From the NCBI GenBank assembly GCA_035643915.1, contig DASQPN010000119.1:1-61361 (forward strand): a DNA stretch of 61,361 nucleotides. Direction: 5' to 3'. Source of the DNA: Terriglobales bacterium (lineage in GTDB: Bacteria > Acidobacteriota > Terriglobia > Terriglobales > Acidobacteriaceae). A model generated the notes under the pieces. The model worked only from the letters and a program-made list of their open reading frames with translations, did no database searches and had not been told where the DNA came from. The translations under genes were made by a program, and so were the position numbers. How positions within the stretch are numbered: the first letter of the stretch is position 1; the number at the start of each line of letters is the position of its first letter. This document shows, piece after piece, positions 23,871 through 60,975 of this stretch.

Positions 23871-24419
23871 ATGATGAGCTCTGAAGAGCTCCAGGAACTT
23901 CGGGAACACGCCGAACACGCGAAACACAATCCCTCGCTCGCGCCCGTCTCCCTCAGCATGGCAATTCTGGCCGTGCTGGTGGCCGTGGTGTCGTTACTGG
24001 GACACCGGGCACACACCGAAGAAGTGATCCTCCAGGCCAAAACCTCGGATCAGTGGGCGTACTACCAGGCAAAAAATATTCGTGGGCATGAGGACAAGCT
24101 ATTTGCGAGTCTGACCGCGATTGCCACCAGCACGAACCCCGAATCCCTGGCAAAGGTCAGGGAAGAGTACTTGCAGGAGTCCGATCGCTACAAGGACGAC
24201 CAGAAAGAGATCGAGAGCGAGGCCCGCAAGCTGGAGCAGGAGGTTGTAACGGAGCGTAGGCGCGCCGACCGCTACGATCTAGGGGAGGTGTTCCTGGAGA
24301 TCGGGCTGGTGGTGACCTCCATCACGCTGCTCTCGGGTCGGAAGATCTTCTGGCACCTTGGCTTGTTGATGGGCGCGCTCGGCGTGATAGTGGCTGTGAC
24401 AGGGTTCCTCGTGAAATAG
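23871..24419 (+). CDS. DUF4337-like membrane protein
   Basis: SD GAGGAGAG then ATG 23871. EHAKHNPSLAPVSLSMAILAVLVAVVSLLGHRAHTEEVILQAKTSDQWAYYQAKNIR. Confidence 0.65.
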   Translation: MMSSEELQELREHAEHAKHNPSLAPVSLSMAILAVLVAVVSLLGHRAHTEEVILQAKTSDQWAYYQAKNIRGHEDKLFASLTAIATSTNPESLAKVREEYLQESDRYKDDQKEIESEARKLEQEVVTERRRADRYDLGEVFLEIGLVVTSITLLSGRKIFWHLGLLMGALGVIVAVTGFLVK

Positions 24420-26211: not shown

Positions 26212-27384
26212 ATGACGCCGAGTCGGCCCGGGGAATTGCACCCCGAGCCGCTCACAGATCCGGACTTGAACCTCTCGATTCATCCGGCTCGTGCCACCCA
26301 ATGAAGACTGCCGTCCTCCATCTCGACCGTATCGGTTCCTCCTGTTGCCAGTTGACCAAACCGGCCAAGACGCGAGTGGCCTGTCCCCTTCGCTCCCCGG
26401 GCATTACCCCGGTTCCTCACTACTACGAGACAGTCCGCCCCTGCTCAACGGATCAGTACTTTCGGCCTCGCGGGGCTTCCGCTTGTGCCTTTTCCCTTAG
26501 CACCGCCGGCAGGTTCTCAAGTTCCGTACCAGAGCCCGGGATAGAGTCACGCCACCTGTGCACCGGACACCACATGGCCAGTAAGCAGGTTTCCGCCATG
26601 CCTTTTCCCAGAGAAGATGGGCCGCTCCGGTTTCGATGTCATCGGTTGATCCGCTTCGATGCTTTCTCAGTGGTTCACTTGCGTTCGTCTCTCTATTCCA
26701 CACATGACGTGATTTTCTCACGTCTTTTGACCATGACGTTCACCACCGCGGCTTTTGACCGAAGCAGCTCATGGCTGTTTGAAGCCTGTTCCTACAAACC
26801 GGCTTCGAAGGGCCTTCCTTCATGTCCAGCACAGCATCGTGCTCTTACGAGCGCGTTCTTGACACAACCCCTCCACGGATCCGGACGAGCGGGTTTCCCG
26901 CACCCGGCTCTTGCCTTAGGTAACGACGCCCATGCGCCGCAGGGGATAGGGATGACAGACAGAAGGCAGAGGCGACTTCTCAGGTACTTCAGGTCTGTCC
27001 GACTTCCCAGGTCCGTTCGTCATCGGCGTACGTCCTTAGACTTCCCGATGCGTCCCAAGTCCACTGTGGCCCTGGGCGAGCCTGGGATATCCCGGTTCCC
27101 GCGCGAGGTGCTTCCGTACGTGCACGGGGTCTCTGACCGCGCGGGACTCTGGCACACCTCGCGATATCGGTGCACCGGATGGGGCCTTCCGCATCTCCTG
27201 ACAGCGTCGGCGTCCCGGAGCAATTGTCTTACGCGGCTCAATACCCGGCCCGCACGTTCCCTTGTCAACGCTTCGACGCCGCCCTCGCGAGCGGCTCCGC
27301 ATGACTCGGGGCCGATGTGGGTCGCTGGTCCACTTTCGTATGACTCTTTCATTCACTACACCTCGCCGGTTTTAACCGGCGCAC
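26212..27384 (-). mobile_element. Bacterial group II intron lacking an intron-encoded protein (ORF-less / IEP-deleted); 3' boundary approximate
   Basis: On the minus strand the 5' end reads GUGCGCC at 27384. The 34-nt domain V is complement(26257..26290), GAGCCGGAUGAAUC-GAGA-GGUUCA-AG-UCCGGAUC, with an AGC triad, GNRA loop and 2-nt bulge. Domain VI has a bulged A at 26223. Domain-I sequence gives the familiar spurious peptide ESYESGPATHIGPESCGAAREGGVEALT. Only about 35 RT-like codons remain (around 26487-26612). Confidence 0.8.
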
Positions 27385-49367: not shown

Positions 49368-50204
49368 TCAGATCTTTCCCGTGAACGCGCCATAGAGCAT
49401 CTCAGCGCCGAGAGCGACAATCACCGCAGCAAATACCAGTCGCAGCTGCTTTGTTTTGGTGCGGGCCAGGACACGGGCACCTGCCAGAGAACCGGCCAAC
49501 ACACCGAGCATGACCGGCATCGACAACCCCGGGTCCACGTACCCGCGGCTCAAATACACGCCGGCGCTGGCGGCTGCCGTCACTCCGATCATGAAGTTGC
49601 TGGTGGTGGTCGAGACCTTGAAAGGGATTCCCATGGCCTGGTCCATGGCGAGAACTTTCACGGCTCCCGATCCAATCCCAAGAAGCCCGGAAAGCGCCCC
49701 GGCTCCGAACATCAGACTGAATCCCGCGGGAACCCGGTGGACGTAGTATCGCTTTGGACCGCTCAGGGAAGGATACGTGCCGTTCATGCCCAGACGGGTT
49801 GCGAGTTCGTCGGGCTGATCGTCAGCAGGAGACTCAGCCGGAGTCCGGCTGGAGAGATACCCGGAATAGAGAAGAACCAGACCAAAGACGACGCCAATGG
49901 CGGTGGTCGAAACGCTGGCCGCGAGAAAGGCACCGAAGAGCGCTCCTAATGTGGTGGCGATTTCAAGAAACATCCCGATGCGGATGTTGGAGAACCCGTC
50001 CTTCAAATAGGCCGCGGCCGCTCCGGATGAAGTTGCGATTACCGAGACCAGCGAGGCGCCGACCGCATACCGAATGTCCACCTTGAACACCAGGGTGAGC
50101 AAGGGGACCAGCACCACTCCACCGCCCAGGCCGGTGAGAGCCCCCAAAAATCCGGCCATGAACGAGGCCAGCCCAACCAGGACGGTGAATTCCAGGATAT
50201 TCAT
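49368..50204 (-). CDS. TauE/SafE-family sulfite/anion exporter-like permease
   Basis: Start chosen at ATG 50204. MNILEFTVLVGLASFMAGFLGALTGLGGGVVLVPLL, a multi-TM Gly-rich pattern. Confidence 0.75.
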   Translation of the reverse strand: MNILEFTVLVGLASFMAGFLGALTGLGGGVVLVPLLTLVFKVDIRYAVGASLVSVIATSSGAAAAYLKDGFSNIRIGMFLEIATTLGALFGAFLAASVSTTAIGVVFGLVLLYSGYLSSRTPAESPADDQPDELATRLGMNGTYPSLSGPKRYYVHRVPAGFSLMFGAGALSGLLGIGSGAVKVLAMDQAMGIPFKVSTTTSNFMIGVTAAASAGVYLSRGYVDPGLSMPVMLGVLAGSLAGARVLARTKTKQLRLVFAAVIVALGAEMLYGAFTGKI

Positions 50205-50419
50205 GCGACTCCCGCACCAGTGTGCCACAGGGAGTGCTTCCGGGTCTTTGGGTTGGGGGCTGGAACCTTTGATGCCCAGGTCCTTGCTTTGAATCGGGGT
50301 GGGCTCGATTCGCGGAGCCAATCGCCGCGGAAATCGGACTGCCCATGGCGCCCTGGGGGTTCAGGAGCATGAGTTTTACGAGAGCCGTCGGTATTCGGCC
50401 CGTCTCAGCGCTCCCCGGC

Positions 50420-51196
50420 TCAGGATCCGGCATCCCCCAACTGAACGAGCGGGGAGGGCGCGCCGGGCGGATCGGGAAGATGTAGGCCGCACTCAGTTTT
50501 CTGCAATCCAGCCCAACGCCCGGCGCGGGCATCTTCGCCGGGACGGACCGCACGAGTGCAATGAGTGCAACCGATACTGGGGTAGTCGGAATCATGGAGC
50601 GGGTTGTAGGGCACATCATGAGCGCGGACGTAGCCCCACACTTGTTCGCTGCTCCAGTCCACAATCGGGTTGATTTTCACGAGCCGGAACTTCTCGTCCC
50701 ATTCCACTTTGCGTGCCTTCGCACGAACTGAAGTTTGCCCGCGGCGAATGGCCGTGATCCAGGCGCGCAATCCGGCCAGCTTGTCGGCCAGGGGCCTGAC
50801 TTTCCGCAATCCGCAGCACTGATCCGGGTTGGTGCTCCACAGGGCGGGCCCGTAGATGTTTGCTTGATCTTCCGGCGTCAATGGAGAACGCAGTCTTTCG
50901 ACAGTCAAGCCATAGCGCCGCTCCACTCTCTCCATAAGCTCGTAGGTTTCTGGGAAGAGAAAATCCGTATCGACCGTGAACACCCGGAGATTCGGATTGA
51001 CGCCCACCGCGATGTCGACGAGCACCATGCCTTCCACACCGAAACCTGACGCCATCTCGACGCTGTTGCCGAAAGTCTTGAAGGCCCATTCGAGCAACTC
51101 TTGCGGATTCCATGTTTCGGCTAAGCTCTGCGTTCTTTCCACGATCTCGATCACCGATTCGCTCCTAGTCACCCAAAAACGCCTGGTTGTCCACAA
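50420..51196 (-). CDS. cysH: Assimilatory adenylyl-sulfate/phosphoadenylyl-sulfate reductase, thioredoxin-dependent (Fe-S type Cys motifs present)
   Basis: C-terminal KTECGLH. Cluster-type cysteines DQCCGLRKV and SIGCTHCT suggest the APS-reductase subtype. The start may be a few codons downstream of 51196. Confidence 0.85.
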   Translation of the reverse strand: MWTTRRFWVTRSESVIEIVERTQSLAETWNPQELLEWAFKTFGNSVEMASGFGVEGMVLVDIAVGVNPNLRVFTVDTDFLFPETYELMERVERRYGLTVERLRSPLTPEDQANIYGPALWSTNPDQCCGLRKVRPLADKLAGLRAWITAIRRGQTSVRAKARKVEWDEKFRLVKINPIVDWSSEQVWGYVRAHDVPYNPLHDSDYPSIGCTHCTRAVRPGEDARAGRWAGLQKTECGLHLPDPPGAPSPLVQLGDAGS

Positions 51197-51986
51197 AAAC
51201 GTCGAGCACGTTTGCGAGTGGACCAGAGGGGTCCGCCTCGAAATCGCTCATGGCGAGCTCCCCATGGGAGCGCACGGAATCTCCTTGGCCAATCACATCG
51301 CCGACCAGCAGCAGCGTTGGCGCAGGGAGCAGGGGTGCGCTTGGCAAGTTCTTCACCGTGGTGCGATGGATCTGCTCACGGTTCGAACTGGCTCGCGAAA
51401 CGATGGCACAGGCAGTCTCGCCCCTCATCCCCGCCGACATCAGTTGCTGAGAAGTCTGTGCGTAACTGAAGCCGGGCATGTAGATCGCGAGAGTTGCGCC
51501 GGATCGCACGAATGCCTCCCACTCCACGGTCTGGTTGCAATTCGCATGATGGCTGGTAAGAAACACCACCGCGGAAGCGGTGTCGCGCTGCGTTAAGGAC
51601 ACTCGTGCGGCCGCTGCCGATGCCAAAGCCGACGTCACGCCGGGGATAATTTCGAAATCGACGTTGGCCTTGCGGAGCGCACCCATTTCCTCCCCCGCAC
51701 GGCCGAAAATCAGGGGGTCTCCTCCCTTGAGTCGCACCACCTTGAGTCCGAAAGAGGCGAAAGCCACCAACAAAGCGTTGATCTCTGCCTGCTGCACGGC
51801 CTTGCGTCCGCAGCGCTTACCAACGTTCCGCACCTCTGCGCTCTTGGGGACCAGCGCCAGAATCTCGGAACCGATCAGGTCATCGTGCAGCACGGCCTCG
51901 GCCGATTGCAGTACCCGGAGAGCTTTGAGCGTGAGCAACTCCGGATCGCCCGGCCCGGCCCCGACCAAGAAGACCTTACCGTTCAT
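51165..51986 (-). CDS. cobA: Uroporphyrinogen-III C-methyltransferase (SUMT)
   Basis: Start chosen at ATG 51986: MNGKVFLVGAGPGDPELLTLKALRVLQSAEAVLHDDL. The longer tracked ORF (to 52334) overlaps the upstream gene out of frame. Confidence 0.85.
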   Translation of the reverse strand: MNGKVFLVGAGPGDPELLTLKALRVLQSAEAVLHDDLIGSEILALVPKSAEVRNVGKRCGRKAVQQAEINALLVAFASFGLKVVRLKGGDPLIFGRAGEEMGALRKANVDFEIIPGVTSALASAAAARVSLTQRDTASAVVFLTSHHANCNQTVEWEAFVRSGATLAIYMPGFSYAQTSQQLMSAGMRGETACAIVSRASSNREQIHRTTVKNLPSAPLLPAPTLLLVGDVIGQGDSVRSHGELAMSDFEADPSGPLANVLDVFVDNQAFLGD

Positions 51987-52605
51987 GACCCACCCCTTGC
52001 GCAACTCTCTCCCGGGATTGTCGAACCGACTCGCGCACTTCAAACGACTGGCGGCTGGCCGCTGCATGCAACAGGCTGCGGCGACGGTCCGGGTTGAGCG
52101 GACGGGAAAAAAGGCCCTTTCGGATTCTTCCCAACTCCTCGAGCCAGCCCGCGTAGACGGGCGCCAGCTGCGCCTCGAACTCGCGACGCAATCTCTGAGC
52201 AAGCGCTGGGCTGCGTCCTGCCGTCGAGATGGCAACCTGAAGCTCTCCACGGCGAACCACGGCCGGGTAGTAGAAGTCACAGCGGGCGGGATCATCCACC
52301 ACGTTCGACAGAACATGGCGGCTCTGCGCTTCACGGTAGACAGAGTCGTTTACTTCTATGCAGGAGGTGGCCGCGACGACCAGGAAGATCGAGTCCAGAT
52401 CCGCGGGCTGGAATGGACGAGCGTCCCACTCCAACACCCCAGCACGAGCCCAGGCTGCAACCGCCGGTGTTGCCCACGGTGCGACGACCCGAACCTCTGC
52501 ATGAGCAACCAGCAGGCTGCGAATCTTGGATTCGCCGATCTTGCCGGCTCCTACAACCAGACAAGGCCGATCTTCGAGTTTCAGGAACATTGGAAAAAGG
52601 CTCAT
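51976..52605 (-). CDS. Precorrin-2 dehydrogenase / sirohydrochlorin ferrochelatase (SirC/CysG N-terminal type)
   Basis: MFLKLEDRPCLVVGAGKIGESKIRSLLVAHAEVRVVAP. Confidence 0.8.
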   Translation of the reverse strand: MSLFPMFLKLEDRPCLVVGAGKIGESKIRSLLVAHAEVRVVAPWATPAVAAWARAGVLEWDARPFQPADLDSIFLVVAATSCIEVNDSVYREAQSRHVLSNVVDDPARCDFYYPAVVRRGELQVAISTAGRSPALAQRLRREFEAQLAPVYAGWLEELGRIRKGLFSRPLNPDRRRSLLHAAASRQSFEVRESVRQSRERVAQGVGHER

Positions 52606-52632
52606 AGCTATTTCTCTTCCATCTCGTCCGCT

Positions 52633-54336
52633 CTACCCCTCTACCCCGTGCGGCACCCGTCCAGGCGAGGCATCGCGCACGACCGCCGCCACCAACTCGC
52701 CCGCCAGGAATTCCCGCAGTTCGACGTCGCTGTGCCTTGAGAAAAACTGACGCAGGTTTTCGCGAGGTCCACGATCCTCGAGATAGCGCTTTAGCAAGCG
52801 TTCAATCGCACCGGGAACCTCGCTGGCCAGGCATCGGTATCCCACTGGGCGCGCGATCGATTGGTGCATGCCCAGGGCGCCGCCCACGCAGAAGTAGTAG
52901 GCGTCCTCCATCCGATCGCCCACTTTGATCTTTTTGCCTTCGATCCCCAGGTCCGCGATCCAATGCTGGCCACAACTGTTGGGGCATCCGGTGACATGCA
53001 GCTTCAAGTGCTCTTCGAAGCCCGGCAGCCTCTCTTCCAGTTCCTCCACCAGCCAACGTGAGAAGCTCTTGGTCTCGGTGATCGCCAGCTTGCAGAACTC
53101 CGAGCCGCTGCACGCGACCGCCCCGCGCCAGAAAGGCGAACCGTTCACACGGAGTCCTGCCGCATCCAGCTCCTTCACCAACGGCTCGACGTTCGGTCGC
53201 GGCAGGTTGACGATGAGCAGGTTCTGCATGTTGGTCGTACGGAGTTGTCCGTCCGCAAATCGCTCTGAAAGATCCGCCGCGATTTGCATTTGCCGGGCCG
53301 TGATTCGCCCCCGCAAAACAGCAGCGCCCACGAAGAAATATCCCGGTTGTTTTTGGGCGTGAATCCCGACATGATCCCGATAGAGGTCGTCGGGGAGTTG
53401 CTCTTCGGCCGCGGGCTCCAGTGGAAATCCCATCCGGCTCTCGAGCTCTTTCTGGAAGGTCTCTGCGGTCCAGCCGTGCTTGAGGAAAAGGAATTTCAGA
53501 CGGGCGCGTTCGCGGTTTTCACGGAGTACTTCGCTATCCCGGAATATTTCGGCGACCCCGTTGAGAACCGGCACGACCTGGCTCTGTCGCACGAACGCGT
53601 TGAGCCGGGTCGCCAGATGGGGATCGGTCGAGAGTCCACCGCCTATGCGGAGCGAGAAGCCTATCTCCTGCTCGCCTTGGACCCGGCGGCTGACCGCCGT
53701 AAGACCGACGTCATTGATCTCCGGATAAGCACACCAGGAACGGCATCCGGTGATGCAGATTTTGAATTTTCGCGGGAGGTTGTAAAACTCGGCGTTACCG
53801 ACAAAGAACCGGTTGGCTTCGAGAGCCAGGGCGGACGCATCGAAGATTTCGTCTGCATCCACCCCCGCCAGCGGGCACCCGGTGATGTTGCGCGTGTCAT
53901 CGCCGCAGGAGCCCTTGGTGGTCAGTCCAGCTCGCCAGAGAGCATCGAGAACTTCGGGGAGGGCTTCGATGGTCACCCAGTGAAGCTGCACATTTTGACG
54001 AACCGTGAGATCGGCCGAGCCACGCGCATATCGTTCGGTCACTTCGGCGATGGCCCGGAGTTGATGCGCAAGGAGCAGGCCGTTGGGGATTCGGATACGC
54101 ACCATGAAGTAAGGCAACGCCTTACCTTCCCCGCCCTTCCCGCCCACCACCCCGGCACCGTCTCCCTGGGTGTAGACGCCCCACCAGCGAAAGTAGGTGC
54201 CGATCCACTCCGGCGGAATGGAACTGAAGCCTTCCCGCGCGAAACGGCGAATTTCGTCGAGCCCCTCCCACGGGTTCTTCTCCCGCTTCAGGCGCTCGAC
54301 TCGTTGCGCCTTCGTCTCTTTGGCTGGATTGTTCAT
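52633..54336 (-). CDS. sir: Assimilatory sulfite reductase hemoprotein (ferredoxin/NiR-SiR family)
   Basis: Two NiR/SiR ferredoxin-like halves. Siroheme and 4Fe-4S Cys motifs ACSGSEFCK and VTGCPNSCGQHW. Confidence 0.9.
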   Translation of the reverse strand: MNNPAKETKAQRVERLKREKNPWEGLDEIRRFAREGFSSIPPEWIGTYFRWWGVYTQGDGAGVVGGKGGEGKALPYFMVRIRIPNGLLLAHQLRAIAEVTERYARGSADLTVRQNVQLHWVTIEALPEVLDALWRAGLTTKGSCGDDTRNITGCPLAGVDADEIFDASALALEANRFFVGNAEFYNLPRKFKICITGCRSWCAYPEINDVGLTAVSRRVQGEQEIGFSLRIGGGLSTDPHLATRLNAFVRQSQVVPVLNGVAEIFRDSEVLRENRERARLKFLFLKHGWTAETFQKELESRMGFPLEPAAEEQLPDDLYRDHVGIHAQKQPGYFFVGAAVLRGRITARQMQIAADLSERFADGQLRTTNMQNLLIVNLPRPNVEPLVKELDAAGLRVNGSPFWRGAVACSGSEFCKLAITETKSFSRWLVEELEERLPGFEEHLKLHVTGCPNSCGQHWIADLGIEGKKIKVGDRMEDAYYFCVGGALGMHQSIARPVGYRCLASEVPGAIERLLKRYLEDRGPRENLRQFFSRHSDVELREFLAGELVAAVVRDASPGRVPHGVEG

Positions 54337-54378
54337 AAAAACAAAAAGCCCACCGCCAGATATGTCTCTGGCGGTGGG
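54337..54378 (-). terminator. Intrinsic terminator (attenuator) between the Cys-rich sORF and the sir start codon
   Basis: Minus strand: CCCACCGCCAGA (54378-54367), GACATA, TCTGGCGGTGGG (54360-54349), a perfect 12-bp stem. It is followed by CTTTTTGTTTTT (54348-54337) and then immediately the sir ATG (54336). Confidence 0.75.
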
Positions 54379-54405
54379 CGATAATTGCTGATTCTTAAGG
54401 ACTTA

Positions 54406-54495
54406 CTAGGTCAGCAGCCTCCCTGTGCCAGAAGACGCGCGCGTACAACAACAAGTACAACAACACGCGATCGAGGTCTGGCAGGAAGCCAACAT
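54406..54495 (-). CDS. Cysteine-rich leader peptide sORF (29 aa), candidate attenuator leader of the sir operon
   Basis: Hand-read: ATG TTG GCT TCC TGC CAG ACC TCG ATC GCG TGT TGT TGT ACT TGT TGT TGT ACG CGC GCG TCT TCT GGC ACA GGG AGG CTG CTG ACC TAG (TAA) = MLASCQTSIACCCTCCCTRASSGTGRLLT. Confidence 0.6.
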   Translation of the reverse strand: MLASCQTSIACCCTCCCTRASSGTGRLLT

Positions 54496-54504
54496 GATCT
54501 GGCG

Positions 54505-54533
54505 ATAGTAGAGGCTGGTGGAAATCCTGTCAA
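54505..54533 (-). promoter_or_regulatory. Sigma70-like promoter for the Cys leader (predicted leaderless or near-leaderless transcript)
   Basis: Minus strand: TTGACA (54533-54528), 17 nt, TACTAT (54510-54505), then 9 nt to the ATG. No SD. Confidence 0.4.
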
Positions 54534-54612
54534 CTCGGTTCTGTCGCTCGAGCTATCAAAACTTCGAATAGCGGTAATCGAAAAATTCGAATGGTCAGCC
54601 CCAGGTCACCGT

Positions 54613-54641
54613 TTGACTAACACCTTCGCCTCCACTACTCT
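54613..54641 (+). promoter_or_regulatory. Sigma70-like promoter for the His leader (predicted leaderless or near-leaderless transcript)
   Basis: TTGACT (54613-54618), 17 nt, TACTCT (54636-54641), then 8 nt to the ATG at 54650. No SD. Confidence 0.4.
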
Positions 54642-54649
54642 CTAGGTCG

Positions 54650-54718
54650 ATGTCATCTCATCGCCATCATCGCCATCATCATCACGCGCACAGCGCGTTG
54701 GCGGGGGTGCATTCCTGA
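54650..54718 (+). CDS. Histidine-rich leader peptide sORF (22 aa) of the his operon
   Basis: Hand-read: ATG TCA TCT CAT CGC CAT CAT CGC CAT CAT CAT CAC GCG CAC AGC GCG TTG GCG GGG GTG CAT TCC TGA = MSSHRHHRHHHHAHSALAGVHS. Eight His fall within 11 codons. Confidence 0.75.
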   Translation: MSSHRHHRHHHHAHSALAGVHS

Positions 54719-54743
54719 GTTAGACCAGCACTCATCGAAGTTC

Positions 54744-54783
54744 AGCCCGCTGACGCAAAAGGCTCAGCGGGCTTTTTGTTTTT
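54744..54783 (+). terminator. Intrinsic terminator (attenuator) between the His leader and hisI
   Basis: Perfect 10-bp stem AGCCCGCTGA (54744-54753) / TCAGCGGGCT (54764-54773), 10-nt loop, then TTTTGTTTTT. The hisI SD GGAGG follows at 54793-54797. Confidence 0.75.
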
Positions 54784-54803
54784 CCGCGAAACGGAGGCCG
54801 CGG

Positions 54804-55172
54804 ATGGATATGGAGATTGACTTCAACAAAATGCAGGGTCTGGTACCAGCCATCGTGCAAGACGCAGGCTCGGACCAGATCCTAATGCTCGGCTTCATGA
54901 ATCAGGAGGCGTTCGAGCGCACGTTGCGCTGCGGATACGTGACCTTCTTCAGCAGAACCCGCAACCAACTGTGGACCAAAGGCGAAAGTTCGGGCAATCG
55001 GCTGAAGGTCATCTCCGTAAGCACCGACTGCGACCGTGACTCATTTCTGGTGCGCGTCCAGGTGGAGGGAGCGGGGGTGGTCTGCCACTTGGGAACGCGC
55101 TCCTGCTTCACTCAGGAGATCCCGCTTTCCTCTGCGCCAAAGCTGGAAGAGGCGCGGGAGATCCAGCGATGA
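54804..55172 (+). CDS. hisI: Phosphoribosyl-AMP cyclohydrolase (monofunctional, no HisE domain)
   Basis: [54 protein letters not shown]; 122 aa. Confidence 0.9.
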
Positions 55173-56038
55173 AACTGCGCATCGGTATCCCAAAAGGCAG
55201 CTTGCAGGAAGCAACGCTCCAACTCTTTGCCCGCGCGGGTCTGGAGGTGTACACGAGTGCGAGATCTTATTTCGCCTCGACCGCTGATCCTGAGATCGAG
55301 TGCATGCTGATCCGCGCGCAGGAAATGGCACGCTACGTCGAGCACGGAGCCTTGGACGCCGGCCTCACCGGGCTCGACTGGGTGGTGGAGAGCGGACTTC
55401 AAGTCATTCCGGTCGTTGATTTGATCTACGCGAAACGGAGTCGCGGAAAAGTGAGGTGGGTTCTTGCCGCTCCGGAAGACTCCCCGTTTCATCGAGCCGA
55501 AGACCTTTCCGGGCGGATTATCGCCACCGAACTCGTAAACGTTACGCGCAACTACTTTCGCGGCAAAGGTGTCGAGGTCGAGGTAGAGTTCTCCTGGGGC
55601 GCCACTGAAGTCAAACCCCCCATGCTGGCCGACGCGATCGTGGAGGTTACAGAGACGGGCAGTTCCCTCAAAGCAAATCGCTTGCGCATCCTGGAGACCG
55701 TTCTCGAATCGAACACCCAGGTGATTGCCAACAAGACAGCATGGGGGGATGGCGAGAAGCGTCGCAAGATCGAGAACCTCGCCCTGATGCTCTGTGGCGC
55801 GATGGAAGCCCAGGATCGCGTCGGACTGATGCTGAACGTGCGCAAGGAGAACCTCGACCGTGTTTTGGCCGTGCTGCCCGCACTGAAGAAACCGACCATC
55901 TCGACACTGAGCGACGGCGAATGGGTCGCAGTAAACACGGTGATCGAGGAATCGGAGGCTTGGGAGGTGATTCCACGGCTGAAAGCGGCCCAGGCGCAAG
56001 GTATCGTCGAGTACCCCCTGAATAAGGTGGTGATGTAA
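55169..56038 (+). CDS. hisG: ATP phosphoribosyltransferase, long form
   Basis: ATGA overlap with his[25 protein letters not shown]...; 289 aa including the C-terminal regulatory domain. Confidence 0.9.
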
Positions 56039-57279
56039 TGCGCATCCTCACCGGGCCCGCCGCGGCGCGGCGGGTGGACCAACTGGCGAAACGCGGCTCC
56101 CAGTTTGCGGCTTTGGAGCCGCAGGTGAGCAAGATTGTGGAGGACGTGCGTCGGCAGGGCGACCGGGCTCTGCGCCGGTACGCCGCCAATTGGGATGGGC
56201 TGCCTTCGAACCGTGGACTGCGAGTCTCGGAAGCGGAACTGGAGGCCGCGTGGACAATCGCATCACCGCGGTTGCGCAGCTCGCTCCGCCAGGCGTCCGC
56301 GAACATCCGTCGCTTCTGCAGATGGCAACAGCCGCAGGAGTGGCACCGCCAGGCGGGCGGCATGTTGCTGGGGCAGATCGTCCGTCCCCTGGGGTCCGTC
56401 GGATGCTACGTTCCCGGCGGACGTCATCCGCTGGTCTCCTCCCTCCTGATGACAGTCGTTCCAGCCCAGGTCGCGGGCGTGCCTGAAATCCGCGTGGTCT
56501 CGCCCAACCCTCGAGTTGAAGTCCTGGCCGCAGCGCACATGCTGGGAGTTCGCGAGTTCTATCGAGTGGGAGGAGCCCAGGCGATCGCGGCCCTGGCTTA
56601 TGGTACGAAGAGTATCCCGCGCGTGGACAAGATTGTGGGTCCCGGCAATCAATACGTCACCCTTGCCAAGAAACTGGTGTCGTTCGACTGTTCGATCGAT
56701 TTTCTGGCGGGACCAACCGAAGTGGTCATCCTCAGCCATCGGGGCCGGGCGAATTTCATCGCGGCCGACTTGGTAGCGCAAGCAGAACATGATCCCGATG
56801 CCGTACCGGTTTTCATTACAAGCTCGACCCGGCTGGCCCGTGCCACCGCAACCGCAGTCAAGCAACTCACGGATCACAACGACATCGCACGCCAGTCGGT
56901 GGCTCGACAGGGGTGCGTACTACTCGCGCATTCTCGAGCGGAGGCCGTCGAGTGGGCCAACCGGATTGCCCCCGAACACATCACCGTCGACGCGCGAGAC
57001 CTGCCCTCCATTCAGAATGCCGGTTCCATTTTTGTCGGTGAATACTCCGCCCAGGCGGCGGGTGACTACGCATCCGGGCCGAACCATGTATTGCCCACAG
57101 CCGGGGTGGCACGCTTTCGCGGCGGCCTCGCCATCATGGACTTTGTAAAGATCATTACGGTCCAGGAACTCTCAGAACGAGGACTCCAGAGAATTGGAAG
57201 AACGGTCGCCTACCTGGCCGAGACGGAAGGCCTGAGGGCGCACGCCGAATCCATTCGGGTCAGGTGTCCAGATGCTTAA
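56038..57279 (+). CDS. hisD: Histidinol dehydrogenase
   Basis: GGAQAIAALAYGT, VGPGNQYVTLAK, AQAEHDPDA, GDYASGPNHVLPT. Confidence 0.9.
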   Translation: MRILTGPAAARRVDQLAKRGSQFAALEPQVSKIVEDVRRQGDRALRRYAANWDGLPSNRGLRVSEAELEAAWTIASPRLRSSLRQASANIRRFCRWQQPQEWHRQAGGMLLGQIVRPLGSVGCYVPGGRHPLVSSLLMTVVPAQVAGVPEIRVVSPNPRVEVLAAAHMLGVREFYRVGGAQAIAALAYGTKSIPRVDKIVGPGNQYVTLAKKLVSFDCSIDFLAGPTEVVILSHRGRANFIAADLVAQAEHDPDAVPVFITSSTRLARATATAVKQLTDHNDIARQSVARQGCVLLAHSRAEAVEWANRIAPEHITVDARDLPSIQNAGSIFVGEYSAQAAGDYASGPNHVLPTAGVARFRGGLAIMDFVKIITVQELSERGLQRIGRTVAYLAETEGLRAHAESIRVRCPDA

Positions 57280-58351
57280 CCCACGCGAGTCGGTACGCAA
57301 CCTTCCCACTTATCATCCTCCGCTCGCAGGACGCACGGGGCTGCGCCTTGATTTTAACGAGAATACCGTCGGCTGCTCTCCACGGGTTCTGGCGCGCCTA
57401 CGATCGATCGATTTCGAGGAACTGGCACGTTACCCCGAACGTGAACCGGTCGAAGCCGCGGTTGCCGGTCACCTTGGGACAGAACCAGGGGAACTCCTGC
57501 TCACGAACGGGGTTGACGAGGCCATCCACCTCTTGTCCGAGACCTACTTGGAGGCCGGGGATGAAGCCTTGCTGGTGGTCCCGACGTTTTCCATGTATGA
57601 GATTTTTGCGGCAGCTACCGGCGCACGAGTCATCAAGATTCCGGCGGGGGAGGATTTCTCGTTTCCGGTGGCCGACATTCTGCGCCAAATCACCCCGGCC
57701 ACTCGGCTCATCGCGATCGCCAACCCAAACAATCCCACTGGTTCGGTTGCGACCGTGGAGGATCTTCTGCGGGTGGCTGAATCTGCCCCCGACGCGGCGC
57801 TGTTGGTGGACGAAGCGTACTACGAATTTCATGGCGAGTCTCTACGGAGTAGGTGGAGGGAACACCCCAGCCTTTTCGTGGCTCGCACTTTCTCGAAGGC
57901 TTACGGTCTCGCAGGACTGCGAGTAGGACTGCTGATGGGCGACGCACACCAGATGAGTGCCGTCCGGCGCGTGGCTTCCCCCTACAACGTCAACGCGGTC
58001 GCGCTGGCCTGCTTGCCCGAGGCGCTCGCGGATGAACCCTACGTGCGTCAGTACGTGTTGGAAGTCTGCCGTGGGCGAGAGCGTCTCGAATGCGAACTGA
58101 AATCCCTCGGAATTCCCTTCTGGCCCAGCCGCGCGAACTTTGTTCTGATGCGGCTGGGCTCTTTGAACTCCGCCTTCATCGGCCGCATGCGCGAGCGAGG
58201 CATTCTCGTCCGTGACCGCTCCCGCGACCCTGGGTGCGAGGGGTGTGTGCGGATCACACTGGGCTCGGCGGAACAGACGGACAGGCTGTCGGGCGTCCTT
58301 CGGGAAACGCTGCATGAAATTGGCGCCCTACGACAAGAGGTCCAGCGATGA
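57272..58351 (+). CDS. hisC: Histidinol-phosphate aminotransferase
   Basis: Class-II aminotransferase pattern NPNNPTG and the PLP-Lys motif [15 protein letters not shown]. Confidence 0.9.
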
Positions 58352-58935
58352 GGAAAGCACGCATTCACCGGCCCACCAAGGAAACCGACATTCGCGCGGT
58401 CCTGAACATCGACGGCCGTGGACACTACAAAATCTCGACCGGGATCCATTTCTTTGACCACATGCTTGAGCTGTTTGCTCATCACGGCGGATTTGACCTT
58501 GATCTTAAAGCTCGCGGTGACCTTGAGGTTGATCAGCATCACACCGTAGAAGATGTTGGGATCGTGCTTGGCCAAGCATTCGACCAGGCACTGGGCAGCA
58601 AGCGAGGAATCCTGCGCGCGGGCTACTTCCTGATGCCGATGGATGAAACCTTAGGTCTTGCCGCCGTGGACTTCTGTGGCCGAACGTCGGTGTTGGTGGA
58701 TACCCAGGTGCGAGTGAGGCTGGTGGGCGATTTGCAGGCAGAACTCGTCCATGACTTCTTTGAAGGCTTCGCACGAGGGGCGCGGGCCAACGTGCACACC
58801 CGGGTTTTGTACGGCCGCTCCAATCATCACAAGATCGAGTCTCTCTTCAAGGCTTTTGCGCGAGCGGTGCGGGCTGCCTGTTGGAGGGATCGTCGAATGG
58901 CTCGCTTTATCCCCAGCACCAAGGGAGTCTTGTGA
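58348..58935 (+). CDS. hisB: Imidazoleglycerol-phosphate dehydratase (monofunctional)
   Basis: [11 protein letters not shown]..., [29 protein letters not shown]. Confidence 0.9.
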
Positions 58936-59531
58936 CGATCGCAATCGTCGATTACGGCGCCGGGAATCTGACCTCCGTGAAGAAGGCTTTGGATTGGCTC
59001 GGCCAGGTCGCGGTCATCACATCCGATGCTGAGCAAGTAGCGCGCGCTGAGAAATTGATCGTCCCCGGTGTTGGTCATTTTGCGGCCACCCGGGCTCTCC
59101 ATAGCTCCGGGCTGAAAGACGCCATCGACGTAGCCCTGGGTCGCGGAACACCGTTCCTGGGCATCTGTCTCGGCATGCAATGGATGTTCGCTTCAAGCAC
59201 AGAAGCGCCTGAGGTCGCGGGTTTGGGGGTTTTCTCCGGTGAATGCGTGCACTTTCCCGCAGACGTGAAATCGCCACACGTGGGCTGGAACCGACTTCAG
59301 CTTTCGGGGGACGGCCGCCTCTTGCGCGAGATTCCCGCCGAGTCCTTTGTCTATTTCACGCATTCCTATCGTGTTCCGCCGGTTGAGCAAACGGTCGCAA
59401 CCTGTGAGTACGGCGGGACTTTTTCGGCGGTCGTCGAGCGTGACCATCTGTTCGGCGTCCAGTTCCATCCGGAAAAGTCGGGGCCGGTCGGCATAAAGCT
59501 ACTCCGGAATTTCTGCGAGTTGAAATGCTGA
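58932..59531 (+). CDS. hisH: Imidazole glycerol phosphate synthase, glutaminase subunit
   Basis: GTGA overlap with his[26 protein letters not shown] (catalytic Cys), FHPEKSG. Confidence 0.9.
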
Positions 59532-60292
59532 CGAAACGAATCATCGCTTGTCTGGACGTGGACGGCGGCCGGGTCGTCAAGGGCGTGCAGTTCCTGAACC
59601 TGCGGGATGCTGGGGATCCAGCGGAGCTGGCAATGGCACACAGCCAGGGCGGCGCTGACGAGATCGTGCTGCTCGACATTTCAGCAACCGCTGAGAGACG
59701 TCAGACGCTGCTCGAAACCGTAAGGCGAACCGCGCGAGAGTTATTTATTCCGTTTACTGTGGGCGGTGGTGTGCGCACACTGGACGATGCTTCCGCGGTG
59801 TTCGATGCAGGCGCCGACAAGGTGAGCATCAATTCCGCGGCCCTGTCCGATCCCGGCCTGATCACGTGCATCGCCCAGCGGTTCGGTTCGCAAGCGGTGA
59901 TTGTCGCCATCGATGCCAAGCGCGGGGACGGGGGAGTCGCGTACCAGGCGTTTGCCGGAGGCGGCAGGAAGCCCAGCGGACGGGATGCCGCAGCCTGGGC
60001 GCGTGAGGCGGAGTCACGAGGCGCGGGCGAGATTCTTCTCACTTCCATGGACCGCGACGGTACCGGCAATGGTTTCGACTGCCAACTCACACGTTCGATC
60101 TCCGATGGCGTCCGGATCCCGGTGATCGCTTCGGGCGGGGCGGGGTCGGCGGGCCACTTTGTCGAGGTCTTCCAGAAGGGCCACGCCGACGCGGCGCTAG
60201 CAGCTTCGATCCTGCACTACCGAGTGACCGAGCTTGCCGACCTCAAACAAGAGCTTGCGGCCGCAGGAATTCCCGTGAGGTGGCCATGCTGA
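59525..60292 (+). CDS. hisF: Imidazole glycerol phosphate synthase, cyclase subunit
   Basis: [20 protein letters not shown]...[10 protein letters not shown]...[15 protein letters not shown]. Confidence 0.9.
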
Positions 60293-60975
60293 TCCCGTCG
60301 ATCGATCTCATGGGGGGCAAGATCGTCCAACTGGTACAGGGGGAGAAGAAGGCCCTGGAGTTCGACAATTTTGAGGAATGGATTCTTCGCTTTTCGAAGT
60401 ATCCACTGGTGCAACTCATTGACCTCGACGCCGCGATCGGAAGCGGGGACAACCGCAGATTGCTGCGGCAATTTACCAAGCGTCTCTCCTGCCAGGTGGG
60501 AGGCGGGATACGATCCATCGATTGCGCGCAGGAAATACTGGCGATGGGAGCGGAGCGGGTCATTCTTGGTTCAACCTTGGTCCAAAATGACAAGGTCAAC
60601 ACTGCCACTGCCGAACAGTTCGCCCAGCGATTCAGCGCTGACCGTCTGACCTTTGCAGTCGACTCGAAGAACGGCAGGGTCGCGATCAGCGGATGGCGAG
60701 AAATGACCACGCTCGCTCCGGCTGAGATGATGCAGGCCCTGGAACCTTACTGCCGCGCCTTCCTGTACACGCACATTGACACCGAAGGCCTCCTGAAAGG
60801 AATCCCGCTTGACGCAGTTCGGGCTTTGCGCGGGATCACCTCGCGACAACTCATGGTCGCCGGCGGAATCGCAAGCCAAGAAGAAGTGGGCCGACTCGAC
60901 AAGCTCGGGGTGGATGCCGTCGTCGGCATGGCGATCTATTCGGGCCGGATGAAGCTGGACCCGAGCCCAGCATGA
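60280..60975 (+). CDS. hisA: ProFAR isomerase (HisA family, somewhat divergent)
   Basis: [18 protein letters not shown]...QVGGGIRS...ILGS...[10 protein letters not shown]...AGGI. An alternative ATG start lies at 60286. Confidence 0.8.

Follow-up and report, generated by a model that had tools for sequence, protein, structure and literature searches.

The stretch of DNA analysed here (hereafter the window) comprises 61,361 nucleotides and carries on its plus strand a his operon in the order hisI-G-D-C-B-H-F-A, an order given in an initial annotation made from the sequence alone and with which the NCBIfam assignments agree. These place hisI at 54804-55172, a long-form hisG at 55169-56038, hisD at 56038-57279, hisC at 57272-58351, hisB at 58348-58935, hisH within 58881-59531, hisF at 59525-60292 and hisA at 60280-60975. 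Together with the Shine-Dalgarno (SD) sequence GGAGG of hisI (54793-54797), the putatively regulated unit thus spans 54793-60975. The leader described below sits in a divergent intergenic region, and the gene on the other side is equipped with a separate promoter and terminator.

Reading of positions 54300-55100 revealed a short open reading frame (sORF) of 22 codons on the plus strand (54650-54718), which is not preceded by an SD sequence, translates into MSSHRHHRHHHHAHSALAGVHS and ends with a UGA stop codon at 54716. Eight His residues lie within codons 4-14 and a ninth at codon 21, the main run (54659-54691), our candidate sensor, consisting of eight CAY codons interspersed with two CGC (Arg) codons and one GCG (Ala) codon. 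The coordinates and the count of eight His in 11 codons had been reported in the initial annotation and proved exact on re-reading. In the six-frame translation of the 61 kb window, a stop-free stretch of 11 residues with at least five His occurs at two places only, the second being an unrelated stretch on the minus strand near 23990. Upstream of the sORF, a -35-like box (TTGACT, 54613-54618) is followed after 17 nt by a -10-like box (TACTCT, 54636-54641) that ends 8 nt before the ATG, and this arrangement predicts a transcription start at about 54647-54650. Downstream, an intrinsic terminator (54744-54783, plus strand) starts 25 nt past the stop codon, with a perfect 10-bp stem formed by AGCCCGCTGA (54744-54753) and TCAGCGGGCT (54764-54773) and with the U-tract TTTTGTTTTT on its 3' side, reaching 54783. 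Stem length, 25-nt spacing, U-rich tail and the hisI SD and ATG that follow are all exactly as first described.

The tail of the sORF and the terminator share a second pairing option. The segment GCGUUGGCGGG (region 2, 54695-54705), which ends 10 nt before the stop codon, forms the 5' strand of an antiterminator with CCCGCUGACGC (region 3, 54746-54756), which overlaps the terminator in its 5' arm and the first part of its loop. An alternative pairing of TTGGCGGG (54698-54705) with CCCGCTGA (54746-54753) had been proposed before, and it does exist; its length, however, is not 8 bp as stated then, as three further G-C pairs extend it to 11 bp. An optional inner helix of GGUGC with GCACU (54706-54710 with 54728-54732), which encloses the stop codon, would extend the antiterminator further. 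In addition to this earlier picture, the His and Arg codons form a region 1 that pairs with region 2, for which the MFE structure of the window contains the pairings 54670-54675 with 54699-54704 and 54684-54689 with 54693-54698. The calculated energies in the window amount to -22.0 kcal/mol for the terminator, -19.2 kcal/mol for the antiterminator alone, -23.5 kcal/mol for the antiterminator with inner helix and -8.5 kcal/mol for the short 1:2 hairpin. Overall, the 178-nt region folds better than 200 out of 200 shuffled versions (z = -3.35).

Relatives were collected by a HisG scan with one genome per GTDB species, which yielded 80 loci with 70-91% HisG identity, while a separate search for HisG homologues returned relatives at 87-91% identity only. 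Nearly all of the 80 loci stem from MAGs labelled Acidobacteriota, Terriglobia, Terriglobales, Acidobacteriaceae or Candidatus Sulfotelmatobacter. Judged by these labels, the window originates from a Terriglobales (Acidobacteriota) soil bacterium, and the initial suspicion of a lineage far from the enteric bacteria was thus borne out. The window's own HisG was also found on soil metagenome contigs. One locus (L065, DASPLH010000108.1) belongs to a MAG labelled 'Clostridia bacterium', carries the same His leader and encodes a HisG 75% identical to that of the window; this bin is probably mislabelled or contaminated. A database protein of 425 aa (P0001) matches HisG with E = 7.7e-175 and has a length equal to HisI plus HisG; it could therefore be a fusion of HisI with HisG or, on a short contig, the product of a frameshifted gene call.

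A search of the his upstream regions of relatives had been suggested in the initial annotation. Of the 80 loci, 75 proved to have a His-run sORF in front of hisI, with a GC-rich hairpin and then a U-tract on its 3' side; the five loci without a leader have less than 500 nt of upstream DNA, which is too little to judge. These figures describe the distribution within Terriglobales relatives, the group that was sampled, in which MAGs labelled Terracidiphilus are among the carriers of the element. In all leader-bearing relatives the His-run sORF stands immediately upstream of hisI. Their peptides, represented by MTSLTHRHHHHHHAMSVSAGDNG and MLSHLHHRHHHHAHRVAAGVQT, contain 5-10 His codons with a mode of 7 (n = 76 sequences). 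Gene callers had left the sORF uncalled on all four metagenome contigs examined. The leaders, including that of the window, were combined in an alignment (A1) of 76 sequences and 173 columns with a mean identity of 54%. The covariance model R1 built from it, a step likewise suggested at the outset, assigns 116 bits to the copy in the window and found no other full-length copy there. Three weak partial extra matches of R1 (E 0.001-0.49) lie on the antisense strand of the His terminator, over the terminator of a Cys leader described below and at positions 49552-49620.

Both terminator and antiterminator are maintained throughout the family. The terminator is 95.6% paired in A1, with compensatory changes at 5 of its 10 pairs, and was predicted independently by RNAalifold. 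Pairing of the antiterminator is kept in 89.1% of cells, compared with 28-53% if the partner is slid by 1-3 columns. Two-sided compensatory changes in the antiterminator are restricted to four cells because regions 2 and 3 are so conserved; one-sided changes are numerous and all of them are wobble-compatible: one pair alternates among G-U, G-C and A-U and a second among U-G, C-G and U-A. The inner helix, which the initial annotation had correctly located in the window, turned out to be weakly conserved, with 67.6% pairing across the family against 15-58% in slid controls. Columns of the 1:2 hairpin are 83.6% paired in A1, with 12 double-change cells. The spacing of these elements is similarly constrained: the last His codon is separated from region 2 by 9 nt in 74 of 76 sequences, the end of region 2 from the stop codon by a modal 11 nt, and the stop codon from the terminator by 17-40 nt with a mode of 25-26 nt (76 sequences each). 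These conserved spacings fit ribosome footprints.

Two kinds of constraint can be distinguished along the sORF. Within the His run, A1 shows an almost invariant C at codon position 1 and A at position 2, the latter alternating with G to give Arg, and third positions that toggle only between C and T (about 1 bit). As the His codons vary solely at synonymous C/T third positions, we conclude that the run is constrained as codons. The tail behaves differently: third positions of region 2 are 89-99% conserved, which is equal to or above positions 1 and 2, and the conservation of all three codon positions indicates a constraint as RNA. A Leu/Ser replacement in the tail (TTG or TCG) is radical for the peptide and neutral for the pairing (U-G or C-G).

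These observations bear on a reading in which the product itself matters, namely a functional His-rich micropeptide, for instance a metal-binding one, with the hairpin serving as a leaky terminator or insulator. His-rich peptides can indeed bind metals, and the tail motif A-x-S-V-S-A-G/E is recognisable across the family. Yet the conserved third positions and the pair-preserving Leu/Ser exchange explain the motif A-x-S-V-S-A-G at the RNA level, as a by-product of the RNA constraint, and 89% of cells retain complementarity between the tail and the terminator arm. Moreover, length and N-terminus of the peptide vary freely among relatives, while its position is invariably the one directly in front of hisI. 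We therefore regard a micropeptide function as extremely unlikely.

The Arg codons within the His run deserve separate mention. An in-frame CGY codon occurs inside the run in 63 of 76 sequences, creating CCGCC or UCGCC, to which the GGCGG core of region 2 is complementary; the two CGC codons of the window lie at 54662-54664 and 54671-54673 (the relevant stretch being A1 columns 16-30). It appears that the recurrent HRHHHH pattern arises because the Arg codon supplies this pairing partner; what maintains the Arg codons is probably their role in RNA pairing and not the peptide. In 58 of 76 nascent RNAs folded to a point shortly beyond region 2, the GGCGG core was paired with a YCGCC or YCACC stretch of the His run. 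The specific 6-bp 1:2 hairpin of the window was considered as a family feature and rejected, as it is part of the MFE structure in 16 of 76 sequences only, and was replaced by this more general pairing with His and Arg codons.

The switch was examined by folding a transcript that ends before region 4, the partner of region 3 in the terminator, with a 30-nt mask representing the ribosome. In the truncated RNA of the window, a mask centred on any of the His codons within codons 4-12 gave an MFE structure with the full 2:3 antiterminator, whereas in the RNA without a ribosome region 1 held region 2 and the antiterminator was not formed. With the ribosome at the stop codon the antiterminator was absent; here the mask is placed such that it inevitably covers the 3' half of region 2. 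A stall at the last His codon of the run (codon 14) would partly cover region 2. Across the family, the antiterminator was the predicted fold in 72 of 76 truncated RNAs with a ribosome on the His codons, and the terminator was part of the MFE structure in 72 of 76 free full-length RNAs. For 69 of 76 sequences, that of the window among them, the terminator remained the more stable structure in the full-length RNA at equilibrium with a stalled ribosome. Equilibrium folding of the full-length RNA was set aside as a test of the switch because attenuation is a kinetic process; since the terminator mostly wins at equilibrium, the model depends on the kinetics of co-transcriptional folding, as is the case for classical attenuators.

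Promoter and start codon of the sORF are tightly linked in the relatives. Each of the 58 loci measured has a TTGAC that begins 36-41 nt ahead of the sORF ATG and, at a spacing of 16-19 nt, a TAnnnT box that leaves 6-11 nt to the ATG; of 72 loci, 70 contain TTGAC in the 75 nt preceding the sORF. An SD core precedes 3 of 70 sORFs, compared with 47 of 70 hisI genes. As the SD sequence is missing and the promoter abuts the ATG, we infer that the sORF is probably leaderless or nearly so, with a predicted 5' UTR of 0-4 nt; given the modal gap of 9-10 nt between -10 box and ATG, a 5' UTR of 2-4 nt would be just as likely as a 5'-terminal AUG.

Such a start might also mean that the sORF is poorly translated and that the element acts as a constitutive partial terminator or is otherwise regulated through 1:2 versus 2:3 pairing. 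Leaderless initiation may be poor, the SD core is confined to the three sORFs mentioned, and the antiterminator forms by default, without any ribosome, in 39 of 76 truncated RNAs. Against this stand the strong purifying selection on the identity of the His codons, the strictly conserved promoter-to-ATG geometry, and the Cys leader of the same window, which has the same geometry and an enriched amino acid that matches its own operon. Poor translation of the sORF thus appears to us a very improbable account of the element.

Comparison with known RNA families did not assign the element. At the gathering score, Rfam 15 gave no match to the leader in the window or in the loci of 20 diverse relatives, and the enteric His_leader (RF00514) gave none in 54337-54860 even at E ≤ 10. 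T-box elements were likewise absent from the window region at E ≤ 10 and from the 20 relatives at the gathering score. A sub-threshold match to Trp_leader (RF00513; 19.2 bits with a gathering score of 41) and weak Thr_leader and sRNA matches were dismissed as terminator-driven. A blastn search with positions 54600-54800 against 5,426 E. coli genomes returned no match.

These negative results are of relevance for the identity of the effector, as conserved alternative helices alone leave it unspecified: the switch might be real and respond to a HutP-like protein, to uncharged tRNA in a T-box-like manner or, as a riboswitch, to a small molecule, with the His codons being incidental. However, the His run keeps its frame, start and stop in 75 of 75 relatives, and its exclusively synonymous variation is a signature of decoding. 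In addition, neither a T-box nor, apart from the terminator-driven sub-threshold matches, any other Rfam family was found in the window region at E ≤ 10 or, at the gathering score, in the 20 relatives, and the spacings agree with ribosome footprints. We consider an effector other than the ribosome to be very unlikely.

Based on the sequence elements, their conservation, the codon and RNA constraints and the predicted alternative folds, it is highly likely that the locus constitutes a ribosome-mediated leader-peptide transcription attenuator of the Terriglobales his operon. The interpretation as a His leader-peptide attenuator had been offered in the initial annotation and gains support from conservation, from the two types of constraint and from ribosome-masked folding. 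The components of a classical attenuator are all discernible, namely an sORF rich in cognate codons, an intrinsic terminator and, as its mutually exclusive alternative, an antiterminator whose formation is predicted to be set by the position of the ribosome.

In the mechanism that we propose, transcription from the sigma-70-type promoter (TTGACT, 17 nt, TACTCT) would start at or a few nucleotides from the AUG of the sORF, so that the translated message would be leaderless or nearly so. With charged tRNA-His in plentiful supply, the ribosome would reach the UGA at 54716, where its footprint would cover the 3' half of region 2; region 3 would then pair with region 4, the terminator would form and polymerase would stop in the U-tract, releasing a leader RNA of about 130 nt. 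If charging of tRNA-His is low, the ribosome would presumably stall on the CAU/CAC codons (54659-54691), hold region 1 and leave region 2 exposed. Region 2 could then form its 11 bp with 54746-54756 before region 4 is made, which would block the terminator and allow readthrough into hisIGDCBHFA. If no ribosome is loaded, pairing of region 1 with region 2 would make termination the default outcome.

The enteric his leader hisL (RF00514) is the obvious point of reference, and the two elements share a His-codon sORF, a terminator and an exclusive antiterminator upstream of a his operon as well as, by our proposal, the logic by which ribosome stalling reports the charging of tRNA-His. In detail, they differ in several respects. 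While hisL contains seven consecutive His codons, the acidobacterial run is interrupted by Arg codons; while hisL forms a longer A:B/C:D/E:F series of helices, the acidobacterial leader has three alternative helices (1:2, 2:3 and 3:4). In contrast to hisL, the acidobacterial leader lacks an SD sequence and its promoter abuts the ATG, and the first gene of the operon is hisI, whereas hisG follows the enteric hisL. The acidobacterial leader does not belong to the Rfam His_leader family; at so short a length, the two may be related by descent or have arisen independently.

The layout resembles that of the trp leader more than that of the enteric hisL. The E. coli trpL (RF00513) has a four-region architecture, and as predicted for the acidobacterial leader region 1 comprises the regulatory codons, 3:4 is the terminator, region 2 pairs alternately with 1 or 3, and termination is the default without translation. 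Differences from trpL concern the amino acid and the operon as well as the regulatory run, which with 5-10 His codons is much longer. Leaderless leader peptides are known from Corynebacterium glutamicum (trp, leu and ilv) and from the poly-Cys sORF attenuators of mycobacteria. With these actinobacterial leaders the His leader shares a cognate-rich sORF at or next to the (here predicted) transcription start, the absence of an SD sequence and the position in front of biosynthetic genes, and the sequence traits of actinobacterial-type leaderless sORFs, i.e. a -10 box few nucleotides before the start and no SD, are those of the acidobacterial sORF. It differs from them in belonging to another phylum, in a start that is predicted from promoter geometry and in the presence of a canonical intrinsic terminator with U-tract. 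T-box leaders precede his genes in Firmicutes, and a T-box-like his leader has been reported in Corynebacterium; they resemble the present element as 5' leaders with terminator and antiterminator that respond, in the present case by prediction, to tRNA-His charging, whereas here a translated-looking sORF takes the place of specifier loop and T-box sequence.

The opposite strand of the same intergenic region harbours a second candidate leader, in this case for cysteine. On the minus strand, a promoter (TTGACA, 54533-54528; TACTAT, 54510-54505; spacing 17 nt) is followed after 9 nt by an sORF (54495-54406) that encodes MLASCQTSIACCCTCCCTRASSGTGRLLT with seven Cys, and then by a terminator of 13 bp (54379-54348), the U-tract of which reaches to the ATG at 54336 (minus). 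This ATG opens a NirA/Sir-type sulfite reductase gene, the first in an operon for assimilatory sulfate reduction (49368-54336, minus strand) that encodes the NirA/Sir-type reductase, a sirohaem synthase-like protein, a tetrapyrrole methylase, a PAPS/APS reductase and a TauE/SafE membrane protein. In masked folding, a ribosome on the Cys codons led to formation of an antiterminator. All 4 syntenic genome loci contain the Cys-rich sORF, as do 76 of the 77 metagenomic loci (L085-L164) that were retrieved by means of the reductase. It shares the geometry of the His leader, with no SD sequence and a start close behind the -10 box, and resembles the mycobacterial poly-Cys leaderless attenuators that serve as the known comparison; it is possibly more novel than the His leader. 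As its enriched amino acid matches the product of the operon, the reading of the His leader as an attenuator is strengthened, and a wider use of the attenuation mechanism in this lineage is suggested. A scan of the window for pairs of a single-amino-acid-enriched sORF and a terminator returned no pair beyond the His and Cys leaders.

Classical attenuation is usually taught as a speciality of enteric bacteria, and as the mechanism itself is textbook knowledge, the gain from the present findings lies in breadth and annotation rather than in principle. The His element is absent from Rfam 15, conserved, and very probably a classical-type attenuator in Terriglobales, to judge from its sequence; classical attenuation would accordingly be used widely in this order, in a compact trp-like form. 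Acidobacteria rank with the most abundant bacteria of soils, and to our knowledge very little is known about their gene regulation. If the present reading is true, the His and Cys attenuators would provide two concrete regulatory RNAs for the phylum, of which the His element can be annotated with model R1.

A further-reaching proposal, which we put forward tentatively and as possible rather than probable, is that Terriglobales run a set of leaderless or nearly leaderless attenuators (His, Cys and possibly more) that arose independently of the proteobacterial ones, in which the first ribosome loads on a 5'-terminal AUG just behind the promoter and Arg codons build region 1 through pairing of CCGCC with GGCGG. 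We know of no leaderless attenuator sORFs outside Actinobacteria, and if the transcription start coincides with the AUG, the set would be the first of its kind; we are likewise not aware of any cis-regulatory RNA families defined for Acidobacteria, so that these would be the first. A missing 5' UTR and SD sequence would tie ribosome loading to promoter escape, and the apparently leaderless start thereby bears on the coupling of transcription and translation in attenuation.

Elsewhere in the window, a group II intron lies on the minus strand at 26217-27347, with Rfam matches to group-II-D1D4-6 (160 bits) and group-II-D1D4-2 (108 bits) and a match of 44.6 bits to the domain V-VI model Intron_gpII.
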